Virus record (IMG/VR): IMGVR_UViG_3300037808_002146
Direction: 5' to 3' (one strand)
DNA length: 64,000 nt
Source of the DNA: a virus
Lineage: Duplodnaviria; Caudoviricetes
A model generated the notes under the pieces. It had not been told where the DNA came from and ran no database searches. It was given only the letters and a program-made list of their open reading frames with translations. This document shows, in pieces, positions 4,339-50,806 of this stretch (position 1 is its first letter; every line of letters begins with the position of its first letter). The position numbers and the translations under genes are program-made.

Positions 4339-4659
4339 TCAATTTTCTTCGTGATGACAGCAATCATGTTCTAGTTTCTTGTCACTCTTTTTTATCTTTA
4401 TCCACCAAGACCAAAGAAGCGGGACCATAAGCCAGTGGAGACAGATAATCCAAGCTACAGGAATCCCTGTAAAGAATATGGGGTGAACATAGTTTCCAAG
4501 CAGCGCAAATATTGCTGGAAATATTACATCTTCTATTATTTCCCACCCAACAATAATCACAACTAACACTAAGCCATGCTCTCTAAATGTTTCTTTAATG
4601 CTAGACCAGCTAAAGTGACCCCATTTATGCTTCAGTCTTTCTTTAGCCCATTTGATCAT
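4339..4659 (-). CDS. membrane protein
   Basis: 2-3 hydrophobic helices; overlaps the upstream gene. Confidence 0.65.
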   Translation of the reverse strand: MIKWAKERLKHKWGHFSWSSIKETFREHGLVLVVIIVGWEIIEDVIFPAIFALLGNYVHPIFFTGIPVAWIICLHWLMVPLLWSWWIKIKKSDKKLEHDCCHHEEN

Positions 4660-6202
4660 ATACTAATTTATCTTGTGGCGTGTCACCGCCCAAGCCTTCC
4701 TTTATTTGCGAATATAGGGATTCAGCAACTTCTCTGCCGTACTCTATATCAGTGGGAAAATGAACTCCCCTGTCTACCCTAGATTGGGAAATCACTTCTG
4801 CTATTTTGACTAGATTTTCTTCGTGCTCTGGAAACTGGCTACTTAACATCTTTGCCACTACGTAGGCCTGAATCGTATGGCCGCTTGGGTATGATGGCGA
4901 TTGAGCTGACTCAAGTTTATCGCCAGAAAAATCTACGCCCATACTTGATGCTAACGCTACAGGCCGGGGTCTATCGTAGTAATCTTTCAGTTTTATAATA
5001 AAAGGTTTTAAACTGCCAATCAGCATATCGTAGTAGTCTACGTTATATGTTTTGCCTTTGGATTCTAAGAATATTTGAAATAGTTTATCGAAGCTTTCAT
5101 CGCACATTTTTTGTAGTTTGTTCGAAACTTTTCTTTTTTGATATTGCGCCACAACAGTTGCTAGATCTTTTGCTTGCTCTTCGACAGACAACGGGTAACT
5201 CTTATGCTCGAAATAGTATTTCCCAGATGGAATAACTGAGATGGATTCTCCTATCAATCTATCTAAAGACTCTTTAACAGTTGGATCGTTTTTCCCAGTG
5301 TCTGCTTCTTCCTTTTCCTCTTCTGGGTTTTCTATCTTTTTTACAAATGCTTTTATTGGATTTGCAACAACTGCCCACACCACTTTAATTCCGCCAAATA
5401 TTTTCCCTAAAAACTTGAAGAGAGTTACTATTCCACCAGAGACTGCCCCCGCTATCGCATCAACGGCTAACCCTTTTATAAAATCAGCGCCTATACTCTT
5501 TGCAGCAAGTTTAACTTTCTCTATCATCTTTTTTAATTCAGACGAATTTTCGCTCGACATGCCGGGAACACTTTCTGATTCCTCTTTTAGTAAAGAGCTG
5601 TCATATAGAGATGAAACTAAACTCAATTTAGCAACATAAGACTCGCTTAATCCAGACTTTATTTTTTCAACAAGGTCAAAATCTAAAAGCTCTGCGTCTT
5701 CGAGTTTGTCCCATACAAATTTAACTCCAACGGAGGCTGCTATTGCGAATAGAACTTTTTTCCACCCATCGATACTTTTGACTTTCTCATAAGCAGCCAC
5801 TACAGCACTTTTTATTTTTTCGATAAAGGTGACCAACACTTCAGCAGGTTTAAACTTACTTAAGAGATTTTTTCCAATATCGAGAATATTCTTCATCCAC
5901 TCTATTAGCTTGTCGTATTTTTTGTCAACTATTTTCATTACTTCGCTAACAAAAATTTTAATCCTAGAAGCATCTTCCATTACATACCGCATAGCTAAAC
6001 CCGCGGTTTTCATATCGCCTGCTAGCTCTTTAAAGCTGTCGAAAAAACCTTCGAGTAAAAGTTGCTCCTCTATTATTCTTTGCCTTAACCCTGAGGAATA
6101 TGGCGTAGATTCATTGAGGGGAATCTTAATCCCTAATACGCCTGTAACATAGCTGTGTTCGAATATTTTTGGAGAAAACTTATTGATAATTAAAGAACTC
6201 AT
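4643..6202 (-). CDS. N-terminal helical domain fused to a C-terminal PAP2/acid phosphatase-haloperoxidase domain
   Basis: PAP2 signature KDYYDRPRP, SYPSGH and SRVDRGVHFPTD in the last ~200 aa. Confidence 0.8.
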   Translation of the reverse strand: MSSLIINKFSPKIFEHSYVTGVLGIKIPLNESTPYSSGLRQRIIEEQLLLEGFFDSFKELAGDMKTAGLAMRYVMEDASRIKIFVSEVMKIVDKKYDKLIEWMKNILDIGKNLLSKFKPAEVLVTFIEKIKSAVVAAYEKVKSIDGWKKVLFAIAASVGVKFVWDKLEDAELLDFDLVEKIKSGLSESYVAKLSLVSSLYDSSLLKEESESVPGMSSENSSELKKMIEKVKLAAKSIGADFIKGLAVDAIAGAVSGGIVTLFKFLGKIFGGIKVVWAVVANPIKAFVKKIENPEEEKEEADTGKNDPTVKESLDRLIGESISVIPSGKYYFEHKSYPLSVEEQAKDLATVVAQYQKRKVSNKLQKMCDESFDKLFQIFLESKGKTYNVDYYDMLIGSLKPFIIKLKDYYDRPRPVALASSMGVDFSGDKLESAQSPSYPSGHTIQAYVVAKMLSSQFPEHEENLVKIAEVISQSRVDRGVHFPTDIEYGREVAESLYSQIKEGLGGDTPQDKLVYDQMG

Positions 6203-6208
6203 GCTATA

Positions 6209-7018
6209 CTAACCCGCTTCCTTGATACTAAGTATTCTGACTGGAGTCGCAATATACTCATTCCACAGAGAAGTTCGAACTTCACTGTCACATGAATCCA
6301 GTTCTCTGCAAATATTATCTTGATCTCGACCCGGATACTCTAACCGATGCATGTTACAAGCTCGTCTGCCAGTGTCAACTGCTACTGACTTAATGTCACT
6401 TCTAAAGCCTCCACGGACGTTACCTACTAGTTCTATCACCAAGTTAGACTCTGGGCGGAAGAAGGGACGTTCTGCAACCGTGAAGCATGATATATCGAAA
6501 GGGTGGCCTGAATCAATGGCTGCCTGGATTCTTTCTACTCCCGTCTGAGTTGTATAGTGACTCAAGCGCTTTTGGTTATTTAGACCACCATAAATCTGAG
6601 TGGTAAACTCTTCATCCATTAGCGCATAAGGCTCAAGATCGCCACGAGAATAAAAATAAGCAAACTTCAATTTACTTATATCGGGAAAGTAACTACCAAA
6701 CTCTCGATCTAATCCCCAAAATCGGTGGTTGGCAAAGTCCTCGATGAAGTCTAGAATGTTCTTCTGAGTTAGGAGATCATATCTCTCTACCTCTGTATTA
6801 TATTGAAAACCAAAATATTCATCGATTATCTGAAGTAGTCTCTGATTTAAACTCTGGCCTCCGCGAGTATCGACACCTTGCTTTTGAAGTTCTAGTAATT
6901 CTTCTACCACGAGCTCCCATTGCAAAAGTGTATGAAAAGAGGAAGACGGTTTAATGTATCCAAGCACTCTCGTCTTCTCATTCAGTAACCCTCTTATGTA
7001 TTCACGGAGTAGATTCAT
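6209..7018 (-). CDS. leader-tagged (MNLLREYI) hypothetical protein
   Basis: N-terminus MNLLREYIRGLLNE; 269-aa ORF. Confidence 0.75.
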   Translation of the reverse strand: MNLLREYIRGLLNEKTRVLGYIKPSSSFHTLLQWELVVEELLELQKQGVDTRGGQSLNQRLLQIIDEYFGFQYNTEVERYDLLTQKNILDFIEDFANHRFWGLDREFGSYFPDISKLKFAYFYSRGDLEPYALMDEEFTTQIYGGLNNQKRLSHYTTQTGVERIQAAIDSGHPFDISCFTVAERPFFRPESNLVIELVGNVRGGFRSDIKSVAVDTGRRACNMHRLEYPGRDQDNICRELDSCDSEVRTSLWNEYIATPVRILSIKEAG

Positions 7019-7632
7019 TTTTCTATTAGCCTTCCTGCTGCGCGCAGCTTATTTAAAGTTGTTGGCGGCTTAGTATATCGTTTACTGAGAGGTGATTGAT
7101 CCCACTTATCTCCGTATGTGTTGATTGTTTTTGACTGCAAGCAATCGTCTTCTTCGATGTCTGGCGTGAGCTTCTGGACATTTAGGTCAGTATAATAAGC
7201 AGCTTCTATGTCAGTTAAGTCCAGCTGGTATGATTGAACATCTCCTCTGTCATTGAAGTAATAGCTCCAAACATTTTGAGCTGCATTTGAAACTGATCTT
7301 CTGTCGGGTGTTAGACCGCCGCCGTCTTGCGTAGCAACTTCCATTGCAACATCATAAAGCATAGGACCCCAACCCTTTGTCGCCATGGTAGACACTACAA
7401 TGAATGCGCCGTCGCATGGGCCGGTTCCTTTGGAAGCGCGGTCAATGGTGACCTCGCCGTAGACGCCTCTGTACCCGTCTTTTGGTTCGCCATTTTTGTC
7501 TGAATAATATATAGTGTAGTCAGTAAGTTCGTCTTTGGAAACAGTGACGTATATGTCTTTTTCGACTAGCGCATCTACGCCTAAGGCGGCTTCCTTCAGT
7601 AACTCACTTATGTACTCGCGGAGTAGACTCAT
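7015..7632 (-). CDS. leader-tagged protein, possible GNAT-like fold; paralog of 10086-10664
   Basis: MSLLREYISELLKE leader; GWGPMLYDVAMEVAT...GLTPDRRSVS..AQNVW. Confidence 0.75.
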   Translation of the reverse strand: MSLLREYISELLKEAALGVDALVEKDIYVTVSKDELTDYTIYYSDKNGEPKDGYRGVYGEVTIDRASKGTGPCDGAFIVVSTMATKGWGPMLYDVAMEVATQDGGGLTPDRRSVSNAAQNVWSYYFNDRGDVQSYQLDLTDIEAAYYTDLNVQKLTPDIEEDDCLQSKTINTYGDKWDQSPLSKRYTKPPTTLNKLRAAGRLIEK

Positions 7633-7633
7633 T

Positions 7634-7936
7634 TTAGTAACCGGCTTTTCCTCTAACGCCTACGTCCATGTCGCCGTAAGTGGTCTGTAGCTGCTCGCGA
7701 GATCTTACACGTCGGTCAGGAATCTCCTCCATTCCTGAGCCATCTTCGTAGCCTCGATCATAAGAAGCCATTAATTCCTCATCGCCATCGATCCAGTCAT
7801 GATAACTACCGGCGTCATACCCTTCCTCTGCATCTGTAGCACCAGAATCATATGCACTCACAATTTGATCCTCACGATCACGATTGCGGATCGATTCTCG
7901 AATAACTCTTCTTAGCTGGCGTTTGGTGATTCTCAT
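7634..7936 (-). CDS. leader-tagged (MRITKRQL) acidic hypothetical protein
   Basis: Leader plus YDxGYEDG-like motifs. Confidence 0.75.
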   Translation of the reverse strand: MRITKRQLRRVIRESIRNRDREDQIVSAYDSGATDAEEGYDAGSYHDWIDGDEELMASYDRGYEDGSGMEEIPDRRVRSREQLQTTYGDMDVGVRGKAGY

Positions 7937-8265
7937 TAGAGTACTCCTTTTAAAATCTGTTTCCAGGAAGCAGGCATATTGTCTGGCGATGTGCCTTCGT
8001 ATACCTCTTCGCGTTCGATGAAACTGTGATCTGCATGCGGATCATTCATACTATCTCTTTCTCCAGCTTTTTTTCCCGCCATATAATCTGGATCTTCTAA
8101 GCTACTCATAGATACGGGCATTTTCCCTTCTAGTCCATCAGTATAGCCCATGGAATTCATACGGTCTTTCCAGCTCTGACGTTTTGTAACGTCTGGAATC
8201 TCATTGCCCGCCTTGTCAATAGCTTCGCGAATAATTCTTTGAAGTTGTCTCTTTGTTATTTTCAT
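7936..8265 (-). CDS. leader-tagged (MKITKRQL) hypothetical protein
   Basis: Leader; GYTDG...DYMAG motif resembling the neighbouring ORF. Confidence 0.75.
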   Translation of the reverse strand: MKITKRQLQRIIREAIDKAGNEIPDVTKRQSWKDRMNSMGYTDGLEGKMPVSMSSLEDPDYMAGKKAGERDSMNDPHADHSFIEREEVYEGTSPDNMPASWKQILKGVL

Positions 8266-8882
8266 TATGCTCCACCCATCCTAGTCACTGCGGCAACAAT
8301 ATCTTCGTAAGTAAATTCGCCTGGATAACTTGCTAACGCATCATCGATAGCTTGCTGATTTCCATCTTGCATCATAGGCGCATCTAAACTGTATCCCATT
8401 TCACGTGCGGCTGCTAACGCACCTTTTGGATCTGGATTTGATGGGGGTTTTCCATAACTACCACCCAAGGCAATTGCATGCTTGCCAGAGATAGGTGGGC
8501 CAGCAGTCTGGCTTTCATTAATGGTTTGTCGAATGATTCTTCTTAATCGTCTCTTTGTGATTCTCATTTTAGATTCCCCTAGTTCGCTTGGTACTTTATT
8601 TAATGTGCCAGGTGCCCAATGCTGGCGTACTGATTCTAGATCAGCTGGGTCTGCATCACTTCCATTGTATGCGTACGGATCGGGTGCTAGCAGTATTTCT
8701 ACAGGGACGGCACCTTCTCCACCATAACCGCTGTCATAAGCTTGCTGCGCGCCGGCTTCATTACTCCACCAAATTGGAGTCCGTGTTTTCTGAGATTTTG
8801 CAAGTGTACCATCGAGGCCGAGTAGAAACCAGCCTTTAGATTCTTTAATGATTCTTCTTAGCTGTCGTTTTGTGATTTTCAT
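8265..8882 (-). CDS. leader-tagged protein with a second internal leader (two fused modules)
   Basis: MKITKRQLRRIIKES at the start and LGESKMRITKRRLRRIIRQTINES internally. Confidence 0.75.
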   Translation of the reverse strand: MKITKRQLRRIIKESKGWFLLGLDGTLAKSQKTRTPIWWSNEAGAQQAYDSGYGGEGAVPVEILLAPDPYAYNGSDADPADLESVRQHWAPGTLNKVPSELGESKMRITKRRLRRIIRQTINESQTAGPPISGKHAIALGGSYGKPPSNPDPKGALAAAREMGYSLDAPMMQDGNQQAIDDALASYPGEFTYEDIVAAVTRMGGA

Positions 8883-9172
8883 AAAGTTTGTCCCGCGTTT
8901 TTTGCCTTTGCCTTTAGGGCTGAAAGAAAATGTCGAATTAATTCTAGCTGTCGAGCCGTCACCGTTTCATCCGCAGTATAATCATCTACGTCAGCTACAA
9001 AATTTTGAATCTCATACCACAAGTCTTTTGGAATTGATATAGAATCTCCTGTCGAACTTGGATCGGGGCCACCGACAGATGCGTACGGATCGTCGGGAGG
9101 GATTTGCTCATTGAGCAGTCTCTGCTTCTCTTCTCGAATGATTCTTCTTAGTTGCCTCTTTGTGATTTTCAT
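8879..9172 (-). CDS. leader-tagged (MKITKRQL) hypothetical protein
   Basis: MKITKRQLRRIIREEKQRLLNE. Confidence 0.75.
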   Translation of the reverse strand: MKITKRQLRRIIREEKQRLLNEQIPPDDPYASVGGPDPSSTGDSISIPKDLWYEIQNFVADVDDYTADETVTARQLELIRHFLSALKAKAKNAGQTL

Positions 9173-9184
9173 ACTATCCTTTTT

Positions 9185-10054
9185 TCAGTCGTACATTGGT
9201 GGTACGTGTTTAATTGGTGGACGCTTCTTTCTCAATTTAGCTCCGCCTTTATTCAAAACATCCATCACGGCTTGAAGCGTTGTGCTAAAATGTTTCATGT
9301 CGCTAGCTCTCAGGGTGACGCTCATATTACCCAAACGATCGCTAATGTCCTCTAGCGATATGGCCGTGACCTGTCCGCCTTTTTTTCGCGGTTGGTACAC
9401 AATATACTTCACATCAGCGTCACCCACCGCGGCTTGGAACGCGTCGCCTAGCGCGGCCAACTCATTTTTATTTGGGGATGAAACAATAGCGGTATTCAGT
9501 CGGTTGTCCTGTTCGTCGTATACTGCATCTTCTATTTCGGGATCACGCAATAAGTCTCTAACATCTTCAAAATCCGGGTCATCAAACTTCATGTCTTCCA
9601 ATTGGAGGTAAGCATCCTGTCCATACTCATCCACCATCAACCGGGCAAACTCATCGAGATCATCGGCCTGGAGCGCTGCTTTAGTTGCTGCAACGAAGTT
9701 ATAAGGCTGCGTACTCTCCCTAACGATTCTGATTAGTTGTCGCTTTGAGATCTTTATTTTACCCTCCTCCATAAGGTGGGCCAAGTCTACGTAGTTACCT
9801 TCCTTATCAAAACGGTAAGGCAACCCCTCCTCGTCCCATTCTACATCGTCATATTGATCTAGTGCAGAAGGGCGATCAGGGTGATCCGTAGGTGGACTCG
9901 AGGCCGGATGTCGGTCCTTTCTAGCGTCACGCTCGTTATCTGCGCGAACATTCATCTCATCATAATCGGCCTTCGATGGGATATAGATATCCCTTGGGGA
10001 TAGCATTTGGGCCTCTCTGATCATTCTTCTTAGTTGTCGTTTTGTGATTCTCAT
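9185..10054 (-). CDS. leader-tagged protein with a second internal leader
   Basis: MRITKRQLRRMIREA at the start and LMEEGKIKISKRQLIRIVRES internally. Confidence 0.75.
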   Translation of the reverse strand: MRITKRQLRRMIREAQMLSPRDIYIPSKADYDEMNVRADNERDARKDRHPASSPPTDHPDRPSALDQYDDVEWDEEGLPYRFDKEGNYVDLAHLMEEGKIKISKRQLIRIVRESTQPYNFVAATKAALQADDLDEFARLMVDEYGQDAYLQLEDMKFDDPDFEDVRDLLRDPEIEDAVYDEQDNRLNTAIVSSPNKNELAALGDAFQAAVGDADVKYIVYQPRKKGGQVTAISLEDISDRLGNMSVTLRASDMKHFSTTLQAVMDVLNKGGAKLRKKRPPIKHVPPMYD

Positions 10055-10085
10055 TTTGTTACCTTTACGTATTCACACTGTAGTT

Positions 10086-10664
10086 TCATTCTTTTATCAT
10101 CCCACGCTTTCGTAGCTCATCCATCACGGGTGTACCCACTTTGCTTATCTTCTTTGATAAACCAGATTCATTCCAAGAAGGGCCGTACTTGTCGTACGCC
10201 GGTACTTGATCACAATCATCAGACTTGTCACCGGGCGTAAGCTGGTCTTCTCCGTAAGAATTCATGTAATCGATATCTAATTGGTCTACTTGGACGTCCT
10301 TACGATAGTTTGTGTAGTAATCCCAAACTGCTTCAGCTTCGTCGGAAACCTGGGTTCTGTCGGCAGCTAGACCACCTGTAGCTTCAATCGCAATGTCGTA
10401 GGCCAGCGGACCATATCCACCTTCCGCCTCAGCAATGCTTACGATGCTTGCTCCGGAGCACTTACCATGCATACCGTCGGTCGGATCGAAACTAACTTGA
10501 GCTAATGTTTTATTTTGCCGGTCTTTTACTAGTACTTGATATCTATTGATTTTGACTTTGCCGCCTTCTTCATCTTCTAGTCTATCGATCATTTTCATGA
10601 TTTTAGGGTGGATAGTAGTAGATTCAGTTAGCAGCTCTCTTATGTATTCGCGCAGTAGATTCAT
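10086..10664 (-). CDS. leader-tagged protein, possible GNAT-like fold; paralog of 7015-7632
   Basis: MNLLREYIRELLTE; GYGPLAYDIAIEATGGLAADRTQVSDEAEAVWDYY. Confidence 0.75.
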   Translation of the reverse strand: MNLLREYIRELLTESTTIHPKIMKMIDRLEDEEGGKVKINRYQVLVKDRQNKTLAQVSFDPTDGMHGKCSGASIVSIAEAEGGYGPLAYDIAIEATGGLAADRTQVSDEAEAVWDYYTNYRKDVQVDQLDIDYMNSYGEDQLTPGDKSDDCDQVPAYDKYGPSWNESGLSKKISKVGTPVMDELRKRGMIKE

Positions 10665-10930
10665 TTTTTAGACTTGTCTTTTTTATCGATGATGGCTTTT
10701 TGCAAGCCGTCTGGTAACGTAGTTTGATCACCGACAAGAGCTGGATTCGCGTTGTATTTGATTGTTGACTCTTGCTCAGCCTCATCAATATCTAGAGTCT
10801 TTGGATACCCTTTTTCCCCAGGCTTAGCTGGCCTTTCACCACGCTTACGCTTAGCATGAATATTTGCCCATAAGCCTTTACCTTTTTTTTCTATCAATAA
10901 CTCTCTTATATATTTTCGCAATAAATTCAT
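10661..10930 (-). CDS. leader-tagged small basic protein
   Basis: MNLLRKYIRELLIE; GLWANIHAKRKRGERPAKPGEKGYP basic motif. Confidence 0.75.
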   Translation of the reverse strand: MNLLRKYIRELLIEKKGKGLWANIHAKRKRGERPAKPGEKGYPKTLDIDEAEQESTIKYNANPALVGDQTTLPDGLQKAIIDKKDKSKK

Positions 10931-10959
10931 TTTTTGTCTATTTTCCTATTATTAGATTG

Positions 10960-11373
10960 TTAACCTAAGTGATCATCCCATACTTCGTCAGCTGGATCTG
11001 GAAAGAAAGCCGGAAACCAACGAGAAGCTTTCATGCCTAGAATAGTTTTTTCCCACGGCGGTTCTTTATTTGGGTTTTGATTTTTCCACTCTTCTCTGGC
11101 TTCCTCTGCGCGGAGTGTTACGTTTGCAATTTTTTCTTTTAAATCTTTAACATATTTTTCGTCGCCATACCCAGGGATAGACTCTGCATTAGACTCCATC
11201 CATTTATGTAACTTCTCAAAGTAGGGTGCAATCATTCTCTCTGTGCCGTTATGGATTGCATCGTCTATTTTTTTGACAAAACCCATAGCAGTTTTAATAA
11301 TATTTTCTTCTAAAACTTTTTGCTGGTGTTCTTCTTCTAGCAATTCTCTTATGTATTCGCGGAGAAGATTCAT
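10960..11373 (-). CDS. leader-tagged (MNLLREYI) hypothetical protein
   Basis: Start revised to the ATG at 11373, which overlaps the upstream TGA (ATGA). Confidence 0.7.
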   Translation of the reverse strand: MNLLREYIRELLEEEHQQKVLEENIIKTAMGFVKKIDDAIHNGTERMIAPYFEKLHKWMESNAESIPGYGDEKYVKDLKEKIANVTLRAEEAREEWKNQNPNKEPPWEKTILGMKASRWFPAFFPDPADEVWDDHLG

Positions 11374-11582
11374 ACCTTGCACCCCTTGGGGAGTTGAGAT
11401 ACTAAGCTTTTTTTATAAACTTCAATGTTGGGTTGTGACCACTTAATTTGAGGGCAGTATATCCTATACTCTTCTTGATCTTTGAGAAACAGCTCGAGCG
11501 CGGTGACGTCGCGTTTCATATTATTTGTATCTTGGACAGAAGCAACGCTAAATACCGCTGCAAATAATATTTCAGCAATCAT
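11370..11582 (-). CDS. small secreted/membrane hypothetical protein
   Basis: Signal-peptide-like N-terminus; coupled to neighbours. Confidence 0.6.
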   Translation of the reverse strand: MIAEILFAAVFSVASVQDTNNMKRDVTALELFLKDQEEYRIYCPQIKWSQPNIEVYKKSLVSQLPKGCKV

Positions 11583-11854
11583 CTCGCTTTCCTCGTAATC
11601 ATAATTTCTATTCGGCCCAGCGATCCTTTCATATATTCGATATCTTTTTCGATACCAATTATCTGCTTCGCATTAGTGTCAGATCCCTCTATTTTTTTCG
11701 ATAGTACGCTAATAACTGCCTCTGCATCTCCCAAGTCGTTCTTGAGTTCAGCAACTTTTACGTTTGTGCTCCAGACCCAACCGGCGAGTGGAAGGACTAA
11801 AACTGACATTATTAGTGAAAACACTTTCCACAAATCATCTTTTGAAACGGCCAT
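11579..11854 (-). CDS. TM plus coiled-coil protein
   Basis: One TM helix followed by a heptad-like region. Confidence 0.65.
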   Translation of the reverse strand: MAVSKDDLWKVFSLIMSVLVLPLAGWVWSTNVKVAELKNDLGDAEAVISVLSKKIEGSDTNAKQIIGIEKDIEYMKGSLGRIEIMITRKAR

Positions 11855-11877
11855 TGTAACTTACCTCTCTTTCTTTT

Positions 11878-12522
11878 CTACGAAGGATTTCCTAGGATTA
11901 TTTTAGTAGAGCTATGACTACCAAAAGACTTCGTATACCACCCATTTACTGATTTAAATAATGCGGGAGCGTTAGAGTCGGGATGAGCGCCATGAAAAAT
12001 ATAATCATCGCCAGACAATAGTTTAGCGACTTTGTTCTCATCTTCAACGGCAATAGCCCCTCTTTTGAGCATAGCATATGCAGGTTTACCACTCACTTCT
12101 CCCCACCAGTTACCTATACCTGCGATAGCACCCCCCGCTCTTAAATCAGCTGACTTGCTTTTATATTCTGCAGCTGCAAGGCCAGAGCCGTCATTTGCTG
12201 CGGCTCCCATTTTTACGCCAGCTATATCGGGCTTTCCCATTATAGCAACGTCTATGTCTGGATCATCATCGATATCTTTCACAACCCAATATGTGTACCT
12301 GTCTAAGCTGCTTGGGCTTGAAATTTTAAAATGGCCGCCAATAGGCTCATACGTTTGTTGAACTAAATCAAACAAATTTTGCTTGACTAACTCTCTTCTA
12401 GGATCTCCCGAAGCTAGCAAAGTCCATTCATTTTCAGGTATCACCCCGCCAGTTTCAAGAAACAACCCTCTAGAAATTGACTCTCTAATAATTTTTCTTA
12501 ACTGTCTTTTTTTGATTTTCAT
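11878..12522 (-). CDS. leader-tagged (MKIKKRQL) hypothetical protein
   Basis: Start revised to the ATG at 12522 (ATGA overlap with upstream ORF); MKIKKRQLRKIIRES. Confidence 0.75.
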   Translation of the reverse strand: MKIKKRQLRKIIRESISRGLFLETGGVIPENEWTLLASGDPRRELVKQNLFDLVQQTYEPIGGHFKISSPSSLDRYTYWVVKDIDDDPDIDVAIMGKPDIAGVKMGAAANDGSGLAAAEYKSKSADLRAGGAIAGIGNWWGEVSGKPAYAMLKRGAIAVEDENKVAKLLSGDDYIFHGAHPDSNAPALFKSVNGWYTKSFGSHSSTKIILGNPS

Positions 12523-12797
12523 ATGTAGATTCCCGTGTGGATTATCCCATTGCCCTCTATAGAGCCATCGGGCCAAACCTTAACCCAGTATTGATGCATA
12601 TCCTCAGCGTGCTCAATATGACCGGTGTCGATAATAACTTCGCCGTCTCCCTCTACCGTGACGGGAGTGCGATCGCCAAATATATCCTCAGCAAATTTAG
12701 TCTCTCTTGCCAGTTTTGCTTCCCTACCATGAATCGGTCCATACGTACTAACAGCTTCTTTGATAATTTTCCTAAGTTGTTGTTTGGTCATTTTCAT
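12519..12797 (-). CDS. leader-tagged (MKMTKQQL) hypothetical protein
   Basis: MKMTKQQLRKIIKEA. Confidence 0.75.
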   Translation of the reverse strand: MKMTKQQLRKIIKEAVSTYGPIHGREAKLARETKFAEDIFGDRTPVTVEGDGEVIIDTGHIEHAEDMHQYWVKVWPDGSIEGNGIIHTGIYI

Positions 12798-16189: not shown

Positions 16190-16468
16190 CTAGATCATAG
16201 ATTCTTCTTCTAAATACGAGGCAACGCACTCTTGAAATCTAGGATCTCTCGCTACTTTCATAATATCGGTATCGTCCATATCGTATAGTTCGCAAACACC
16301 TACTGCTAATTTCTTCATAGCTTCTAATAGAATGTTTCTAGCTGCTGAATGTCTCATCTTAAACCCACGCTTAGTCATCTCTTCAGCGATGTCTTTATAA
16401 GACATACCTCCGGTTTTTATTACTGTCGCGTATCCATGCTCTGATTTAAACCCTCTTGGCATACTCAT
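16190..16468 (-). CDS. HTH protein resembling sigma70 region 4.2
   Basis: MSYKDIAEEM...RHSAARNILLEAMKKL; directly downstream of a sigma factor truncated in region 4. Confidence 0.6.
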   Translation of the reverse strand: MSMPRGFKSEHGYATVIKTGGMSYKDIAEEMTKRGFKMRHSAARNILLEAMKKLAVGVCELYDMDDTDIMKVARDPRFQECVASYLEEESMI

Positions 16469-17232
16469 TTAGCTACTCTCCTAATCTCTCTCATTTGTTC
16501 TTTGGACAAGAAAAAATCCTGTTTATCACTATCGTTAGACTCCCCAATACCGAATCTCAGTCTAATGATATTCTCTTCCCTGCTTGTAAGAGTTTTTAAC
16601 GCAGTTCTCATAACAGCTTTTATCTTAACAGAGTCAAGAATATCCTCTACTGAAGATCCTCTTTCATCAGGTATGATTTCGGCTATCTTTCTACCAGAAC
16701 CGCCTGATCTATCTCTTACATTCGCATCGAGAGAAGTTTGAGAAGAGCATTTTATCATAGACATAAGGGTACTTGTTGGAATGCCGAGTGCTTCAGAAAC
16801 TTCTTCGTAGGAAGGTTTTTGTCCAAACTCTTCGTCAAACTCCTTGATCATTTCATTCATCTTCCAGAGAAGATTCCTCGTATGAGCCGGAAGTTTAATG
16901 TCACTAGCATGACTAGCAACGTGAGTTCTAACGGATTGTTTAATCCACCAGTAAGCATAAGTAGAAAACTTAAATCCTTTCCTCCAATCAAAACGATCAA
17001 CAGCTTTGATTAAGCCCATATTAGATTCCTGGATTAGATCTTCTAAAGAGCAACCTTTACTTTGATATTTCTTTGCGATTGAAATCGCTAATCGTAAATT
17101 AGATTGAATCATTTCATTCTTAGCTCGGCGGTCTCCTGCCTCGATTCTTTTAGCTAAGGTAATCTCTTGTTCACGCGTTAGAAGCGGGTATTTACCAACT
17201 TTCGTAAAGTATGTTTGTAATGCTTCTGACAT
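16465..17232 (-). CDS. RpoD-like sigma70 factor (regions 1.2-3 and partial 4)
   Basis: YPLLTREQEITLA, NLRLAISIAKKY, DLIQESNMGLIKAVDRFD.RKGFKFSTYAYWWIKQ, LTSREENIIRLRFG. Confidence 0.92.
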   Translation of the reverse strand: MSEALQTYFTKVGKYPLLTREQEITLAKRIEAGDRRAKNEMIQSNLRLAISIAKKYQSKGCSLEDLIQESNMGLIKAVDRFDWRKGFKFSTYAYWWIKQSVRTHVASHASDIKLPAHTRNLLWKMNEMIKEFDEEFGQKPSYEEVSEALGIPTSTLMSMIKCSSQTSLDANVRDRSGGSGRKIAEIIPDERGSSVEDILDSVKIKAVMRTALKTLTSREENIIRLRFGIGESNDSDKQDFFLSKEQMREIRRVAK

Positions 17233-17296
17233 TATTTTAACCTTCCACTAGTTATTAACGAAGAACAAGGACTCATTCCTTGCTCCTTATGTTCTT

Positions 17297-17325
17297 ATTA
17301 TACCACACCCTCAGTTTATTTGCAC
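17297..17325 (-). promoter_or_regulatory. sigma70-type promoter GTGCAA-N17-TATAAT upstream of the sigma gene
   Basis: Minus strand GTGCAA ataaactgagggtgtgg TATAAT. Confidence 0.7.
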
Positions 17326-17337
17326 GATTTTGTTTTT

Positions 17338-17631
17338 TTATTTTCTCACAATTCTGTCGTGAGTCCTTTTTCTCTTAACTCTCTGATCAAACTCTCTTTG
17401 GATATAGCAGATTTCGCATTCTATAGTCTTAGAGGAATTTTCGTCTCTCTTCGATCTAGCTAGCCTAAGATTTTTGTTAAGACGATCGCTAAGAGATCTC
17501 ATCTCATCGTCACTCTTATGTGCTAAGTCTTCCCAATTTACGTTGATAATAATAATAGGATCATTCTTCCTATCTGTTTTCTTACCTTTACTTTTCACTA
17601 TTATTCTCCGAATTTTCAATAACTGCAGCAC
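17338..17631 (-). CDS. hypothetical protein (true start probably the internal GTG near 17598)
   Basis: ORF track; overlap with groEL suggests a shorter gene. Confidence 0.55.
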   Translation of the reverse strand: MLQLLKIRRIIVKSKGKKTDRKNDPIIIINVNWEDLAHKSDDEMRSLSDRLNKNLRLARSKRDENSSKTIECEICYIQREFDQRVKRKRTHDRIVRK

Positions 17632-19171
17632 ACCCTACTGAAAGTAGGTTGAGTGCTGCGCTGGTTGCATTTTCTAATGCGCAAATTGCGACTTTAACAG
17701 GATCAATTATCCCATCTTTCATTATATTAGAAATTTTTCCTGTACTAGCATCGTAGCCAGTATTTCCCTTTGTTGACTTAAGTTTTTCCAATATCACTTC
17801 TGGAACATCTCCAGCGTTTTTAGATATTTGATAAAGTGGCATCTTCAAAGAATAAGACAAGATTTGATAACCTATATCTTTGTTTTCAGACAACTTTTCT
17901 GAAATTCTAAAAAACGCTGTGCCGCCGCCAGGAATGATGCCATCTTCTAATGCTACCCTAGTGGCGTTAACAGCATCATCTACCCTATCTCTTCTCTCAT
18001 TTACTTCGCTCTCTGTAGAACCTCCAACATAAATAACCGCTACCCCACTGGTCATTCTCTTTCTACGACGATCTAAAACGTTTCTTTCGTCTAAGGAAAC
18101 ATTTGGCTCTTCGCACCTTAAGGTTATAGAAGCTATCCTTTGATTGACTATCTCTTCATTAGAATTACAGTCGACGAAAACGCTTTTTTCTTTATAAGCT
18201 TTGAAATTTTTGCAACTTCCGAGCATAGAGAAGACCGGCATATTAGGCCAACTATCCGGACTGTCATGAATAAGTTCTGCGCCTAATACTGCTGCTAAGT
18301 CTTCGAGGGATTGCTCTCTAGCTACTCCAAACTCTGGGGCTCTTAAAACACAACACTTGAGGTTTCCTTTAGACTTGTTTAAAATCAACCCTTGCAGTGC
18401 TTCTCCGGTGACATCGTTAGCTATAATCACCAAAGGTCGGTTTTCTTTAACTGACTCTTCCAAGATGGAAATAATGCCCTTCATATGCGTAATATTTTGA
18501 TTCGTTAGCATAATAAGCGGATTCTTAAATTCCACAGTTTGCTTAGATTGGTTAGTTACAAAATATGGAGAAATATAACCTCTATCAATCTGGTAACCAT
18601 CAACTAAAATTAGCTCTGTATTATATCCTTTTGAGTTTTCAACAGAAACGTAACCATGAGATCCTACTTGATTTACAGCTTCGGAGATTATCTCTCCTAA
18701 GTCTTCTTCTCCATTCGCAGAAATAGTAGCTACATTTTTTAAATCTTTTTCATTCCTAATATCGATAGACATATCTTTTAAGTGTTCTACTGATGCTGTC
18801 TTAGCTTCTAGTAAAGACTCTCTCAAATCTCTAATGTTACCACCAGTTCCCAGATACTTTGTCCCTTGCTCAAAAATAGCTTGGGCCAATACCGTAGAAG
18901 TTGTTGTACCATCTCCGGCTACTTCGGCTGTTTGACGAGCAGCTTCTTTGACTACTTGAGCGCCTAGATTCTCAAACCTATCGATTAGATTAATGGCTTC
19001 AGCGACTGTAACTCCATCTTTAGTTAAAATTGGTGGAGCATTTTCGAGTTCTATTAAAACGTTTTGACCTCGAGGGCCCATAGTAATCTTTACAGCACCA
19101 GACAATTTTGAAACACCTGAAAGCAGAGAGTTTCTTAATTCATCTGAATATCTCAATATTCTCTTTTGCAT
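17588..19171 (-). CDS. groEL: GroEL-like chaperonin
   Basis: ITMGPRGQNV, TKDGVTVA, GDGTTTSTVLA, GYISPYF, GGGTA; no GGM tail. Confidence 0.95.
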   Translation of the reverse strand: MQKRILRYSDELRNSLLSGVSKLSGAVKITMGPRGQNVLIELENAPPILTKDGVTVAEAINLIDRFENLGAQVVKEAARQTAEVAGDGTTTSTVLAQAIFEQGTKYLGTGGNIRDLRESLLEAKTASVEHLKDMSIDIRNEKDLKNVATISANGEEDLGEIISEAVNQVGSHGYVSVENSKGYNTELILVDGYQIDRGYISPYFVTNQSKQTVEFKNPLIMLTNQNITHMKGIISILEESVKENRPLVIIANDVTGEALQGLILNKSKGNLKCCVLRAPEFGVAREQSLEDLAAVLGAELIHDSPDSWPNMPVFSMLGSCKNFKAYKEKSVFVDCNSNEEIVNQRIASITLRCEEPNVSLDERNVLDRRRKRMTSGVAVIYVGGSTESEVNERRDRVDDAVNATRVALEDGIIPGGGTAFFRISEKLSENKDIGYQILSYSLKMPLYQISKNAGDVPEVILEKLKSTKGNTGYDASTGKISNIMKDGIIDPVKVAICALENATSAALNLLSVGCAAVIENSENNSEK

Positions 19172-21616: not shown

Positions 21617-22849
21617 TTATCTGAATTGAATCACTTTTATTATATCTGAAATTTTCGAAACTATTCTTTCTGCTTCTGAACTTGAATCGCTAAGCTCTTT
21701 TGTCATTTCTTCTATGCTTTCGTATGGAGCTAAGAGAATGCTAGATACTTCTGCCATATCTTTTTGAGTTTCTCTAAAAATCTTGCCGCCATCTTCTTGA
21801 AGATTTGATTTCAACGTATTAAATAGGTAGTCTTCCATCTCCCTTTCGTAATCTTTAGCTGTAACTTTCTCGCCAAGCTTTTTAATTCCTGGAAGTTTTT
21901 TCATTTGCTGCATCAACTTGGACTCTTTAGCTGCTTCTCCCGAATCTTCATCAGCAAATTTTTCTTTTATTTCTTCGTTGCCCCTAGACATTTCCGATTT
22001 GAAGTCTGCTAAGTAGTTACCTAAATCAACTCCGGCAGATTTAGCAGAAGCTACCGCAGCTTCGAGTTGATTATACTCTTTTGCAGACATCAAATCGGAT
22101 AAAGCTTTCATTCTTTCAGGAATTCCCTCATCAACAATTTCTTTTATTGCGTTTTCTTTGATGCTTACAAATTCTTGAAACCCTTTTTCAATTTTGCTTA
22201 AATCAAAATCTAAACCTTGCCTTTTTATTTCAGACTCAATTTCTTTCCCAATATCGATACTCTCTCCACCAACCTCAAGGAGGACATCTAAATGGTCTCT
22301 GCCTAAGGATTCGCCGAAAAATAGATTCTTTAAATCAGCTAGAGCTCCCCTAATGGGTCCACGAGCATCGCCGGTTACTTTTCCGCCCGGGCCGATGCCG
22401 CCTTCTTCTTGGTCTTTCACAGCTAGCCTTTGTTCCTTAAAAACATCGTTTACGAACTTGGCAGCACCAACGCCTTTTTTCAGAGCCTGAACTCCTAGAT
22501 ACGCGGTCGGGTTAGCCATGAAAGCAACTATCTTAGCGTCCGTTCCCATACCATCGGAAACTTTTTTTACAAAATCGGAATGTTCTTTTGCAAACTGTTC
22601 TTGTTTTTGTTGGTATGCATTCAATAGTCTCTGCTTCTTAGTAGTGCTAAAGGTAAACAAAATCCTCATGTTATATAAAACGCCTGTTCCAACGTCTTTG
22701 AGCGTAAGCTTAGCGGCCTTTAGGACATCCGTAAAAGGAGATACAAAGTACTCCATGAATTCGTCATTAGACAAATAGATGCCATATTGAGAACTTTCTT
22801 TTATAATTGACTCTCGAATAAATATTTTAGTAAATTTTTCTTTAATCAT
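21617..22849 (-). CDS. putative virion/head-associated protein
   Basis: 410 aa, helical, with IRES/IKES/FGES motifs. Confidence 0.7.
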   Translation of the reverse strand: MIKEKFTKIFIRESIIKESSQYGIYLSNDEFMEYFVSPFTDVLKAAKLTLKDVGTGVLYNMRILFTFSTTKKQRLLNAYQQKQEQFAKEHSDFVKKVSDGMGTDAKIVAFMANPTAYLGVQALKKGVGAAKFVNDVFKEQRLAVKDQEEGGIGPGGKVTGDARGPIRGALADLKNLFFGESLGRDHLDVLLEVGGESIDIGKEIESEIKRQGLDFDLSKIEKGFQEFVSIKENAIKEIVDEGIPERMKALSDLMSAKEYNQLEAAVASAKSAGVDLGNYLADFKSEMSRGNEEIKEKFADEDSGEAAKESKLMQQMKKLPGIKKLGEKVTAKDYEREMEDYLFNTLKSNLQEDGGKIFRETQKDMAEVSSILLAPYESIEEMTKELSDSSSEAERIVSKISDIIKVIQFR

Positions 22850-23078
22850 GATTACTCTCTAACTTCAATTTTATGCCTGTTTCTCCGTAATAAATATCAA
22901 TCATTTTTCTTTCGAAACTATTTAGACTTTGTTTTTTAGTTTTAGGATCCCTAGTGCTAAAGCTTCTCCTCATCCGAGGGGGAATAGACTTTAACATAAC
23001 TTTCTTAAAATCCATCCAATTTTTATTATCTTCAAGAACTAAAAAAGCAAATTTTATATACTCTCTGTATTCTTCCAC
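22842..23078 (-). CDS. hypothetical protein
   Basis: ORF track. Confidence 0.6.
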   Translation of the reverse strand: MEEYREYIKFAFLVLEDNKNWMDFKKVMLKSIPPRMRRSFSTRDPKTKKQSLNSFERKMIDIYYGETGIKLKLESNHD

Positions 23079-23082
23079 TTTA

Positions 23083-23706
23083 TTACCTAAATAACCTTAA
23101 TTTTTCAATATGACTTTTTATTAAAAAAGATCTGCAATCTAATACATTAAAGCCATCAAGTTTAGTCTTTCCATTTAATACTAACGATTTTTCTAAGAAT
23201 TGAAAAAATTTTTTCTTATCAGACTTAGAAAGTAACGAGATATTTTTATCTAAAGACTCAAAATTTTCCAACAAAAATGACATATCCGTAGCATACGATT
23301 CCCACTTAAGGGTTATTGGATTTTTCAGGATAGAAAAAAAGCCGTAATCAAAGTTTGCTAAATTTTCTAAAAATATAGAACACAATTTTCTAGTTGAGCG
23401 TGAACCCTTTGAGTCAATTTCTATAATTTGAATTAATTTCTTATCCTTGTTTATTCTGCACTTAGCCCAAATAGAGCCCGGGTTAATTGTTTTAATATCG
23501 AAAAAAAGAAATATAGCCCTAACTACTTTTAAAAAATCTATCCTAGGGTTGTCTAAACGCTTCTGAAGCTCCTTGTCAAAGAAAAATGATGAACCTATTG
23601 AATCATAACCAAAATAGACGGTATCGCCCTTTATCTCGTACAGAACTTGGTTAGCTTGCATTGATTCTAGGACATTACTAATAGTAAGATTACTTTTTTG
23701 AGCCAT
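23083..23706 (-). CDS. hypothetical protein
   Basis: ORF track. Confidence 0.65.
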   Translation of the reverse strand: MAQKSNLTISNVLESMQANQVLYEIKGDTVYFGYDSIGSSFFFDKELQKRLDNPRIDFLKVVRAIFLFFDIKTINPGSIWAKCRINKDKKLIQIIEIDSKGSRSTRKLCSIFLENLANFDYGFFSILKNPITLKWESYATDMSFLLENFESLDKNISLLSKSDKKKFFQFLEKSLVLNGKTKLDGFNVLDCRSFLIKSHIEKLRLFR

Positions 23707-24502
23707 TTACTTTTTGAGCAGATCTTAATTGCATCCTTAAGTGCTTGAGTAAGCCATTGTAACTAGATCGAGATTCAGTACCTCTAAAACAAGAGTCTCT
23801 TGAAGATTGTGCATCGATTATCCTAGCTTCTAAATCATTCACTGAAACTTGAGATCCGAAAGAAACTACTTTTCCATTAGCACACTTGTGATTGCTTTTC
23901 GTATTTTCTAAAACTATCATAGCTTCTCTTAACTTCTCTGAAACCTCACCTACGACTATTGGGGAATTACTTAAAGTTTTTGTTGGTTGAGTTTTTAAAT
24001 CACTTTTGCTATTTGGTTTTTCAAAATCATCTGGCATAGGAGCATCTTCAACTCCACCAGCTTTATTCATAATAGTAGCAAACCCGGACATCATAGAGAA
24101 GAGTTCTTGCTTTTCATCTGATTTTAAGTTGTCGAAATATTTTAGTAAGCCAGTTTTCACTTTATCGTCTTTTAAGCTAGCACCAGATCTCAACGCATTC
24201 AACTGAGTTACAATATCTTTGAATTGAACATTTTTTGGCATTTTTTCTGGAATTTCGTAAGAAAACTTTTTGTCGCCTTTTTCTTTTTTGTCGACTAAAT
24301 CTAAATTATCGTTTTTTTCCTCAGAAGACTCTTCTTCGTCTACTTCGGACTTAGACGAAGATTTTTTCCTTATCCCTTCGTCATCAATATCATTTGATAT
24401 AGCTTCTTGTTTTTCTTTTTCCTCTTGCGAAGGATCGATTTGATCAGCAATAGAAGCATAAGACTCTAAGACAGCTTTTTTCAAAAGGTCGTCATCAATC
24501 AT
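23690..24502 (-). CDS. acidic hypothetical protein (putative head/core)
   Basis: VLES near the N-terminus; D/E/K-rich. Confidence 0.65.
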   Translation of the reverse strand: MIDDDLLKKAVLESYASIADQIDPSQEEKEKQEAISNDIDDEGIRKKSSSKSEVDEEESSEEKNDNLDLVDKKEKGDKKFSYEIPEKMPKNVQFKDIVTQLNALRSGASLKDDKVKTGLLKYFDNLKSDEKQELFSMMSGFATIMNKAGGVEDAPMPDDFEKPNSKSDLKTQPTKTLSNSPIVVGEVSEKLREAMIVLENTKSNHKCANGKVVSFGSQVSVNDLEARIIDAQSSRDSCFRGTESRSSYNGLLKHLRMQLRSAQKVNGSKK

Positions 24503-24902
24503 TTAATATCTCCTTGTCTACTAAAGACAGTTCTAAAGAGTAAGTATCTTGATTATATTTAAAACAGTCTATATTTTCTATATTGCTAGAATCTATAGCG
24601 ATGCCTAAACTATCACATGTGATAACAAAAGTATCTAAAGATAAAATAAAGCTAACAATATCTGCGTTTATCAATAAAGAGACTCTAGATAGTTTGTTGT
24701 CCTTAGACGATATAGAAAAAGAGTCTAGCTTACATTCGAAATTATTGCTGCCGAAAGATATCGAAAAATCTATAGATTTGTCTGTATAACTTAGCCTATC
24801 TTTAAGAGATTCAGATACTATTTCATTACCAGGGTTACCCAATATTCTTCTGAATTCATCATTCACGTAATCACCCACCGTTAAAACTCGCAGAGACATC
24901 AT
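24495..24902 (-). CDS. hypothetical protein
   Basis: ORF track. Confidence 0.55.
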   Translation of the reverse strand: MMSLRVLTVGDYVNDEFRRILGNPGNEIVSESLKDRLSYTDKSIDFSISFGSNNFECKLDSFSISSKDNKLSRVSLLINADIVSFILSLDTFVITCDSLGIAIDSSNIENIDCFKYNQDTYSLELSLVDKEILND

Positions 24903-25251
24903 AATAGATATTGTCTACTTCCGAGAGGAAAGCTTTAAAATGATTACTAGCCATCATGTGGCGGGGTACCGTTATCTCTACTTCGTCTTTGTTGTAAACA
25001 TAATTTAAAGAAACCCTGATTCCATGTTGCTGTTCTAGATCGAAAATATATTCACAAAAAGAATGCTGCGAAATTCTTGACGAAAAAGAGAAAACTTTAG
25101 CAAAAAATTCCGAGCTCTCCTCCCAGCCAGTACTACTCTCAACTGAACATGGCGTTACGCTTTTGGAAATTGATAACTCGTTAGGCAAAAAAGAAGGGCT
25201 ATTGAATTCTCTCAGAAAACCTTCTCTCATGACGTTTTTAAGTTTCATCAT
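24871..25251 (-). CDS. hypothetical protein, weakly pterin-carbinolamine dehydratase-like
   Basis: W...KVFSFS...F..YIFDLEQQH pattern is only loosely PCD-like. Confidence 0.45.
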   Translation of the reverse strand: MMKLKNVMREGFLREFNSPSFLPNELSISKSVTPCSVESSTGWEESSEFFAKVFSFSSRISQHSFCEYIFDLEQQHGIRVSLNYVYNKDEVEITVPRHMMASNHFKAFLSEVDNIYYDVSASFNGG

Positions 25252-26426: not shown

Positions 26427-26474
26427 GTTATACCACCTCGAAGTTAATTATCGGTTAAAATTAAGACTATGCCA

Positions 26475-26912
26475 TCAATCGGCTATTTTATTAGCAACGT
26501 ACCCAGAACCAAGAGCAACTAAAGCCCCAAATACAAAACCACCGACGAACCACCATTCTGATGATACATCCTTTTTTTCAAGCTGCTTTACCGATAAGTT
26601 TATTTGTTTTCTTAAAAAATCGTTTTGTGATTTATAAACAGATATTTCAAACTCATTAGCTATTTTTAACTTTTCAACTGCAAAATTACAGTTTGATTTT
26701 TGGATTGCTATTTCTTCTTTTAGCTTTAACTGGCATATCTCTTGAGAGCTATTGAGTTTCACTAACATCTCGGCTACTGCTTCTTGGTTTAAAAGAGTAC
26801 CGGTGAACGGAACTATTTCTCCCTCGTTCACCGTTTTCACTGCGGCTTCTTGTGCGAACGCCGGAGTAAACAGCAACATGAATGAAAGTAAGATGCATAA
26901 AGTTTTTTTCAT
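26475..26912 (-). CDS. signal peptide, coiled coil and C-terminal TM protein (spanin-like architecture)
   Basis: AFA-Q signal cleavage site; C-terminal WWFVGGFVFGALVAL. Confidence 0.55.
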   Translation of the reverse strand: MKKTLCILLSFMLLFTPAFAQEAAVKTVNEGEIVPFTGTLLNQEAVAEMLVKLNSSQEICQLKLKEEIAIQKSNCNFAVEKLKIANEFEISVYKSQNDFLRKQINLSVKQLEKKDVSSEWWFVGGFVFGALVALGSGYVANKIAD

Positions 26913-26948
26913 GAAACAATAATATCTCGTGCTTAGATAAAGTTTAAG

Positions 26949-27559: not shown

Positions 27560-27604
27560 ATTGCACCTCCATGTTAGTATTAACTATCACGTTAAAGCAA
27601 AATA

Positions 27605-28473: not shown

Positions 28474-28475
28474 TA

Positions 28476-29957: not shown

Positions 29958-29958
29958 A

Positions 29959-46888: not shown

Positions 46889-46901
46889 TTTTCTTTTCTC
46901 C

Positions 46902-49370: not shown

Positions 49371-49373
49371 TTT

Positions 49374-50804: not shown

Positions 50805-50806
50805 TA

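Follow-up and report, generated by a model that had tools for sequence, protein, structure and literature searches.

Two conserved leader peptides on an array of unrelated proteins in an uncultured marine jumbo phage: candidate prohead-targeting propeptides

The 64,000-nucleotide stretch analysed here (the window; IMG/VR record IMGVR_UViG_3300037808_002146, Caudoviricetes) carries all of its genes on the minus strand. Between positions 6209 and 12797, the open reading frame (ORF) list and a six-frame motif scan reveal 12 consecutive genes that start with one of two conserved leader peptides, or tags. Leader A (MNLLREYIRELLxE) opens five genes, with ATGs at 7018, 7632, 10664, 10930 and 11373, and leader B (M[KR]ITKRQLRRII[RK]E) opens seven, with ATGs at 7936, 8265, 8882, 9172, 10054, 12522 and 12797. 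Leader B is also found as two internal, in-frame copies (8526-8567 and 9716-9757). Little space separates the genes, and stop codons overlap the starts that follow. The start codons at 11373 and 12522 were reassigned, since these leader ATGs sit within longer GTG- or TTG-started ORFs of the mechanical list. The array comprises the following genes (lengths in amino acids, aa).

6209-7018, minus strand: 269-aa protein with leader A (MNLLREYIRGLLNE) and a conserved two-domain body, the C-terminal domain (residues 144-269) having a predicted ADP-ribosyltransferase (ART)-like fold.
7015-7632, minus strand: 205-aa protein with leader A (MSLLREYISELLKE) and a GNAT-like body, 39% identical to its paralogue at 10086-10664; member of an 18-member family.
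7634-7936, minus strand: 100-aa acidic protein with leader B (MRITKRQLRRVIRE), without a Pfam or PHROG match.
7936-8265, minus strand: 109-aa protein with leader B (MKITKRQLQRIIRE).
8265-8882, minus strand: 205-aa protein with leader B and a second in-frame copy (MRITKRRLRRIIRQ, DNA 8526-8567), a leader-cargo-leader-cargo fusion.
8879-9172, minus strand: 97-aa acidic protein with leader B (MKITKRQLRRIIRE).
9185-10054, minus strand: 289-aa protein with leader B and an internal copy (KISKRQLIRIVRE, DNA 9716-9757).
10086-10664, minus strand: 192-aa protein with leader A (MNLLREYIRELLTE) and a predicted GNAT-like fold.
10661-10930, minus strand: 89-aa basic protein with leader A (MNLLRKYIRELLIE), made of two short modules; matches PHROGs of unknown function.
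10960-11373, minus strand: 137-aa protein with leader A (MNLLREYIRELLEE), start taken as ATG 11373.
11370-11854, minus strand: two leaderless hydrophobic ORFs of 70 and 91 aa (11370-11582 and 11579-11854), the sole interruption of the array.
11878-12522, minus strand: 214-aa protein with leader B (MKIKKRQLRKIIRE), start taken as ATG 12522, overlapping the stop of the upstream gene.
12519-12797, minus strand: 92-aa protein with leader B (MKMTKQQLRKIIKE); the array starts with this gene.

A preliminary description of this DNA had reported at least 12 adjacent ORFs with mostly unrelated bodies behind two leaders, five genes with one and seven with the other. The ORF list and motif scan bear this out, as do shuffled controls: degenerate DNA patterns of both leaders gave seven and five matches in the window and none in 100 dinucleotide-preserving shuffles. 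Apart from the paralogous pair at 7015-7632 and 10086-10664, the cargo bodies are mostly unrelated to one another, and Pfam and PHROGs scans of the tagged proteins of the window returned no match other than the PHROGs of unknown function for 10661-10930. A single, recently duplicated gene family was ruled out as the origin of the array, because the bodies cannot be aligned and the leaders differ at many synonymous sites. A promoter and terminator scan of 4-14 kb gave counts equal to chance expectation.

The 42-nucleotide leader sequences have a mean pairwise nucleotide identity of 0.77, as against 0.24-0.29 for the flanking 42 nucleotides on each side, so that likeness breaks off abruptly at the ATG on one side and at codon 14 on the other. 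Synonymous codon differences exceed non-synonymous ones by about 2:1 (50:26 for leader A and 101:65 for leader B). The sharp borders together with the synonymous excess therefore argue for selection on the peptide, and the peptide, not the DNA as such, is the conserved unit of the leaders. The longest exact run between any two leaders of the window is 15-17 nucleotides, and in a larger sample of leaders Leu and Arg are each encoded by all six of their codons at conserved positions, Thr by four and Ile by three. Hence the tag conservation at the DNA level, which had been proposed in addition to that of the peptide, does exist, but given the synonymous excess and the short exact runs it is only a by-product of the conserved peptide. 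Leader A has an odd nucleotide-level bias at codons 7-9 in the window and in relatives: of 71 distinct DNA versions, 68 use ATA for Ile8 and 58 use TAC for Tyr7. Unlike the ATA of leader A, Ile in leader B is ATC or ATT.

No isolate phage is close to the window. A megablast search of the array against 50,697 phage records gave no match and tblastn of a cargo protein against the same records found nothing; in the corresponding tblastn of the leader peptides one had no match and the other a single chance-level match (E = 4). In IMG/VR, exact scans located 85 stretches with leader B and 21 with leader A, and many of these share contigs of 135-293 kb. Five tag-bearing records of 201-293 kb, one with terminal repeats, encode a DnaE polymerase 44-67% identical to that of the window, and all five carry both a Peptidase_S77 (S77) prohead protease and the capsid protein Gp23. 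These five hold 17-35 tagged genes per record (12-29 with leader B and 0-9 with leader A), all on the coding strand, and a reversed control pattern gave 0 matches. Among a further nine tagged records eight encode S77, which brings the protease-positive total to 13 of the 14 IMG/VR records with tags (135-293 kb); the one without it is a 45%-complete fragment.

A search of relatives for the leaders and a comparison of their cargo, along the lines that the preliminary description had suggested, gave 448 distinct tagged proteins in the fetched loci (382 with leader B, 66 with leader A). Their cargo falls into 211 clusters, of which 139 are singletons, with a median length of 105 aa behind leader B and 192 aa behind leader A. 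That both tags end in I/L-x-E, as had been noted for the window, is nearly invariant in these relatives: Glu14 is kept in 440 of 448 B leaders and 91 of 103 A leaders, and position 12 is Ile or Leu in 431/448 and 95/103, respectively. The arrays lie in variable regions, far from the head module. The searched literature yielded no report of the tag strings, and the 'moraphages' (PMC12619734), which encode PolB, could not be equated with this DnaE-encoding clade.

Tags and cargo combine in a modular fashion, with related cargo found behind tag A, behind tag B, behind an internal tag or with no tag. Both modules of the 89-aa leader-A protein sit behind leader B in other phages (E 1.8e-12 and 1.2e-10). 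The C-terminal half of the 8265-8882 protein also follows a leader in relatives (for example L043:5132-5491), and the C-terminal domain of 9185-10054 is a stand-alone leader-B protein in others (L042:5552-6181 and L012:1089-1706, E 7e-27 and 3e-22). Two or more tags occur in 22 of the 448 proteins. Homologues of the 269-aa protein number more than 623 (62-92% identity), and in these the conserved body is preceded by the canonical leader, by divergent leaders (e.g. MIREIVKEVLQE) or by nothing. Further variants of this family have either a leader followed by an insert of about 47 aa ending in [IL]-M-E just before the body, or a leader placed behind another domain. An [ILVM]-x-E motif is present in 88 of 89 extensions in the family, and its Glu lies 2-5 residues before the conserved body in 62 of the 89. 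It had been suggested that the repeated 5' DNA would allow new cargo to be recruited by recombination. The tag swaps and fusions exist and lend this indirect support, but within the genome the tag DNA shares no more than 15-17 identical bases.

Structure predictions suggest enzymatic folds for some of the cargo. The AlphaFold2 model of the 269-aa protein (mean predicted local distance difference test score, pLDDT, 89.9) shows a detached leader helix at residues 2-11 and a disordered linker at residues 12-20, which holds the presumed cleavage site. The body comprises a helical domain and the C-terminal domain, which gave weak, consistent ART/PARP matches, among them a Foldseek match to PARP (E 8e-3) and an atlas lead; VIA fold matches had Z of 5-6, with a range of Z 3.5-5.4 across CteC, TreTu/TreX, Scabin, PARPs and DarT, and there was no Pfam match. 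This domain thus looks ART-like, which would recall T4 Alt. The model of the 192-aa protein (pLDDT 80) has exclusively GNAT acetyltransferases as its top PDB matches, all weak (E 0.01-0.08), and the pair at 7015-7632 and 10086-10664 has atlas features of 0.93-0.94 to GNAT clusters with no Pfam match, so that both paralogues look like GNAT-like enzymes. When 70 cargo representatives were searched with Pfam, a pentapeptide-repeat protein and an RNase T-type exonuclease were identified (one each), together with a borderline match to ART-PolyVal.

We then turned to the head genes of the same phage. A marine contig in ENA, 201,597 bp long, matches window 46608-64000 with 100% identity across 17,393 bases (locus L115), and therefore the contig that we walked is the window's own genome; its head region was reached by four exact-protein look-ups. 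A T4-type morphogenesis block lies 18-30 kb past the window end. It holds two sheath genes, the gp19 tube, baseplate, gp13, terminase and Portal_T4 genes, a 289-aa gene and Peptidase_S77, and continues with genes of 123, 136, 88, 158 and 181 aa, a 523-aa acidic scaffold and the Gp23 capsid protein. The prohead protease (PF03420, E 1.2e-24) scores 87 bits where the cut-off is 27, and the capsid protein matches PF07068 (E 2.5e-77). With T4 gp21 this protease shares 31% identity (E 1e-19), and it conserves the His and Ser blocks GE(L/C)(N/D)HP and SSRG(L/V)GS. The scaffold N-terminus reads MTSNLYEQAIAEAKQ and that of T4 gp22 MLKEQLIAEAQK, and all six of the capsid proteins compared have L-[RK]-E followed by S/A near residue 60, the counterpart in T4 gp23 being L-T-E|A at 65. 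On these two comparisons, the protease seems to have retained a T4-like specificity.

A resemblance to tag B is also found within the head module, where a hidden Markov model (HMM) of leader B ranks small genes between the protease and the scaffold first. In the window's own genome it places the 88-aa protein (…KLTPRVLRRMIREE…) at the top of 42 ORFs (E 8.8e-5), and in five relatives it picks out orthologous proteins of 136-153 aa and 91-110 aa (E 0.0013-0.4). The 136-153-aa head protein starts with MAK[IV]S[KR]..LK.[LI]VKECLVE, and the 88-110-aa protein has a second motif similar to the one above near its C-terminus. The candidate identification of these small proteins as gp67 or gp68 homologues was not adopted, BLASTP against T4 gp67, gp68 and gp22 giving weak matches of low-complexity type. 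A predicted complex between the protease of relative G001 and a leader-B N-terminus scored 0.02, which counts neither way.

Two further features of the head genes were seen. A C-terminal motif W-x-x-L-A-[GF] is common to three proteins encoded beyond the window, namely the scaffold (L121:11831-13402, ..RWATLAGIKR), a kinase-like gene after the capsid gene (L121:15436-17001, ..RWNKLAGLLND) and the 136-aa protein (L121:10001-10411, ..NWATLAFSEKK); it is found in one of the 448 leader proteins (L050:917-1996) and could be a second, C-terminal route into the capsid. Relatives G001 and G004 have tandem, near-identical Gp23-type capsid genes (632 and 629 aa; L114:13270-17151 in G001) and the window's own genome has one.

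These features recall the internal proteins (IPs) of phage T4, in which propeptides of 10-19 residues target the scaffolding core and are removed by gp21 after L/I-X-E (PMC9026906). The T4 capsid-targeting sequence (CTS) is MKTYQEFIAE (PMC8442874), in which positions 4 and 7 are important for targeting, whereas processing involves positions 8 and 10 (PMC9026906). The T-even internal proteins are diverse anti-restriction proteins with only the leader in common (PMC3012670, PMC12373910). This precedent, which the preliminary description had invoked, is as it had been stated (PMC8442874, PMC9026906, PMC3012670). As in the present array, the T4 and T-even internal proteins (IPI, IPII, IPIII and the polymorphic ip loci) carry a short leader ending in L/I-x-E on unrelated proteins, which in T4 are non-essential; likewise, a gp21-type protease, a scaffold and a Gp23 capsid protein are encoded in the same genome, and the cargo genes cluster in variable loci off the head module. 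In T4 the cargo acts against host defences (PMC3012670, PMC9026906, PMC12373910, PMC8442874).

The most plausible reading of our data, with a probability of roughly 60%, is that both leaders are prohead-targeting propeptides of the T4 CTS kind that are cut by the S77 protease. In each leader, hydrophobic residues at positions 3/4, 7/8 and 11/12 give a short amphipathic helix, and this helix would dock the cargo onto the scaffolding core during prohead assembly. The gp21-type protease would then cut after Glu14 in I/L(12)-x-E(14) and free the cargo inside the head, with a possible additional cut site in leader A at I8-x-E10. Where leaders are internal, the same protease would separate the fused cargo proteins. 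The cargo is a large set that changes quickly and includes the ART-like and GNAT-like enzymes as well as numerous small, acidic proteins. It would be carried in the virion and probably reach the host together with the DNA, to act there in host takeover or against defences. We infer docking, cleavage, head retention and ejection as the steps of this model, of which retention and ejection of the cargo are less certain than the propeptide reading itself. The near-invariant Glu14 behind I/L12 fits the T4 gp21 site, and the cargo folds (GNAT-like, RNase T, pentapeptide repeat and an ART-like one that recalls T4 Alt) fit enzymes that act on the host. Also in its favour are the co-occurrence of the tags with S77, the apparently retained protease specificity, the detached leader helix with its disordered linker in the AlphaFold2 model, and the partial agreement of leader A with the T4 CTS. 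None of the computational tests able to contradict a capsid-targeting label did so.

A number of observations weigh against this propeptide model. I/L-x-E is a short motif. Residues 1-10 of leader A (MNLLREYIRE) have M1, E6, I8 and E10 in common with the T4 CTS, along with hydrophobic or aromatic residues at positions 4 and 7, but this match is too short for statistics and is suggestive only; leader B and the CTS have only the I-x-E ending in common, which is likewise too short for statistics. Within the head module the leader-B HMM scores are weak (at most 13.5 bits), though consistent in rank and register, and the leader-A HMM finds nothing meaningful there in the own genome or in relatives. 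The resemblance of the scaffold to leader A (NLYEQAIAE against NLLREYIRE) is hence one for the eye only. In the related 201-kb phage G005 the ART-like gene has no leader (L123:6001-6774), and it lies beside that phage's leader-A/B array; the tag is therefore dispensable for at least this protein and has been gained or lost on one and the same enzyme. The mature cargo is mostly acidic, with a median isoelectric point (pI) of 4.6 behind leader B and 5.1 behind leader A, and only 6-9% has a pI above 8.5. In charge it is thus unlike the basic T4 internal proteins and closer to the core proteins that T4 degrades and expels. Loading in the manner of the T4 internal proteins may therefore not hold in detail, and the acidic cargo can be read in two ways, either as DNA-mimic-like anti-defence proteins or as expendable core components. 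The earlier proposal of a modular capsid address label stands in part, with presence in virions, cleavage after Glu14 and ejection into the host as its predicted elements: the phage's own S77 protease, the near-invariant I/L-x-E, the likeness of tag B to head genes and the modular cargo are in its favour, whereas the acidic charge of the cargo, unlike that of the T4 internal proteins, is not.

The main rival to this proposal starts from that charge. It holds that the tags are genuine prohead signals and are cleaved there, yet that most of the cargo, especially the small acidic proteins behind leader B, is expendable core or filler that helps to build or size a large prohead and, instead of reaching the host, is degraded or expelled before DNA entry, as are T4 gp67, gp68 and gp22. 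We regard this as unlikely, even if 84% of the leader-B cargo has a pI below 5.5, like the T4 core proteins and unlike the T4 internal proteins, the leader-B proteins are small (median 105 aa) and tag B resembles small head-module genes sited where T4 has its core genes. The great diversity and fast turnover of the cargo (139 of 211 clusters are singletons) fit genes driven by conflict better than structural ones, some of the cargo has enzyme folds, and the arrays lie in variable regions distant from the head module.

Less probable again is a helix with a role outside the capsid, such as docking to a phage chaperone or protease (GroEL, ClpP) as a timing degron, or joining the proteins in a shared cytoplasmic complex. 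The window does encode GroEL and a ClpP-like protein, some orthologues lack the tag, and a common N-terminal tag on unrelated proteins could equally be a recognition signal for a chaperone or protease. Such a role, however, does not explain why Glu14, two residues behind I/L, is almost invariant or why the insert variants conserve [IL]-x-E right in front of the mature body, and it accounts neither for the likeness to head-module N-termini nor for the strict co-occurrence with S77. We consider it very improbable that the conserved element acts as a nucleic acid, as a translational operator at mRNA starts or as a recombination joint, with the peptide being incidental. While the codon bias of leader A (Ile8 as ATA in 68/71, Tyr7 as TAC in 58/71) and the tight gene packing with overlapping stops and starts would suit such an element, all six Leu and Arg, four Thr and three Ile codons are used at conserved positions, synonymous differences exceed non-synonymous ones by about 2:1, and both the internal in-frame copies and the divergent peptides keep the hydrophobic pattern and the I/L-x-E.

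Collectively, the leaders are best read as a greatly expanded, two-tag version of the T4 CTS/internal-protein system. The principle is known from T4; what is new is 17-35 tagged genes per genome, two tags, internal tags and fusions, acidic cargo, and the occurrence in a clade of uncultured marine jumbo phages. T4 itself has three tagged genes and about ten are known across the T-evens, and its one leader has about 10 residues compared with two leaders of 14 here. Unlike in T4, leader copies occur internally and in fusions, and the cargo is mostly acidic whereas the T4 internal proteins are highly basic. The phage also differs from T4 in its genome of about 200-290 kb and its DnaE-type polymerase, and sequence likeness to the T4 CTS is suggestive only for leader A and absent for leader B. 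A bolder and more doubtful extension is a two-channel, recombination-friendly address system by which some 7-10% of the clade's genes would be head-loaded, with leader A serving mid-sized enzymes, leader B serving small and very acidic, possibly DNA-mimicking anti-defence proteins, and internal tags forming protease-cut joints of polyproteins. In that case the sequence alone would reveal the injected effectors of uncultured phages.

Other systems offer partial parallels. T4 Alt is a head-packaged, injected and gp21-processed ADP-ribosyltransferase, and the product of 6209-7018 has an ART-like domain, known here by its predicted fold, behind a propeptide-like leader; by this precedent the enzyme could be injected to modify host proteins (PMC9026906). 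Its fold match is weak (Z 5-6), and some orthologues are without the leader. The jumbo phages phiKZ, 201phi2-1 and SPN3US load many head proteins whose propeptides are trimmed after Glu by a diverged gp21-like protease (PMC9026906). Their cut site is S/A-x-E rather than I/L-x-E, and phiKZ-type head proteins have not been described with one common short leader. The phiKZ-like head proteins form paralogous families alongside a gp175-like protease, whereas the cargo here is mostly unrelated. The phiKZ-type capsid and protease resemble those of T4 only distantly, whereas the Pfam models for T4 give direct matches in the present phage. In phage P1 the first 30 residues of DarB suffice to load this anti-restriction protein and a reporter into the capsid (PMC9024508). 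DarB differs in being one large protein that enters stepwise along with its Dar partners, with no shared leader family and no described I/L-x-E processing.

Phage proteins that are carried in the head and injected are the first weapons to reach the host, and they are hard to recognise from sequence. To our knowledge only a handful of injected head proteins are known outside T4. If the propeptide model is correct, hundreds of proteins that are candidates for injection can be recognised by a 14-residue motif in uncultured phages that abound in the ocean. The 448 candidates in 211 families, obtained from a small sample, would then provide a catalogue for the discovery of anti-defence and host-takeover functions. 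The array would also be a natural case of modular cargo exchange, with tag swaps, fusions and tag gain or loss on one enzyme, and would extend the T4 CTS principle to a distant and much larger phage with a different replication apparatus and acidic cargo. Furthermore, the two short tags might serve to load foreign proteins into capsids, as the T4 CTS does.

Three other genes of the window, one adjoining the array and two outside it, bear on its surroundings.

4643-6202, minus strand: neighbouring gene for a 519-aa protein without a leader, with a C-terminal PAP2 phosphatase domain (PF01569, E 7e-12).
53847-54083, minus strand: 78-aa ORF outside the array with a divergent A-like N-terminus (MNKQLLRTYIRLLFLE); weaker leader likeness.
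54913-55413, minus strand: 166-aa ORF outside the array with a leader-like N-terminus ending in I-L-T-E (MKVSTKDIIRDILTE); weaker leader likeness.

The N-terminus of 54913-55413 resembles the divergent leaders found on homologues of the 269-aa protein. In the 4643-6202 protein the PAP2 domain is soluble and follows a long helical region, and the gene adjoins that of the ART-like protein; in relatives P0115 and P0118 (445 aa each) PAP2 is fused directly to the ART-like body. Further minus-strand genes in window 21617-31380 have short N-termini ending in [ILF]-x-E (e.g. MIKEKFTKIFIRES, MIDDDLLKKAVLES and MKYKNVKEIINKILFET), which may be other propeptides of the same protease.

The window also encodes a DnaE-type polymerase, GroEL, ribonucleotide reductase, DnaB helicase and IMPDH/GMP reductase, as well as a ClpP-like protein (Pfam match, locus L115). 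Beside a T4-type morphogenesis block, the set of DnaE polymerase III alpha, GroEL, ClpP-like protease, RecA/UvsX and a sigma-70-like factor (16190-19171, 39515-43096, 46286-46939 and 51763-52956, minus strand) is unusual. A T4-like DNA alpha-glucosyltransferase is encoded at 35049-36446 on the minus strand (PF11440, E 1e-9; phrog_2888, E 4e-98), and its sequence suggests that the phage may glucosylate hydroxymethylated DNA. DNA glucosylation is the setting in which the injected internal proteins of T4 block type IV restriction.

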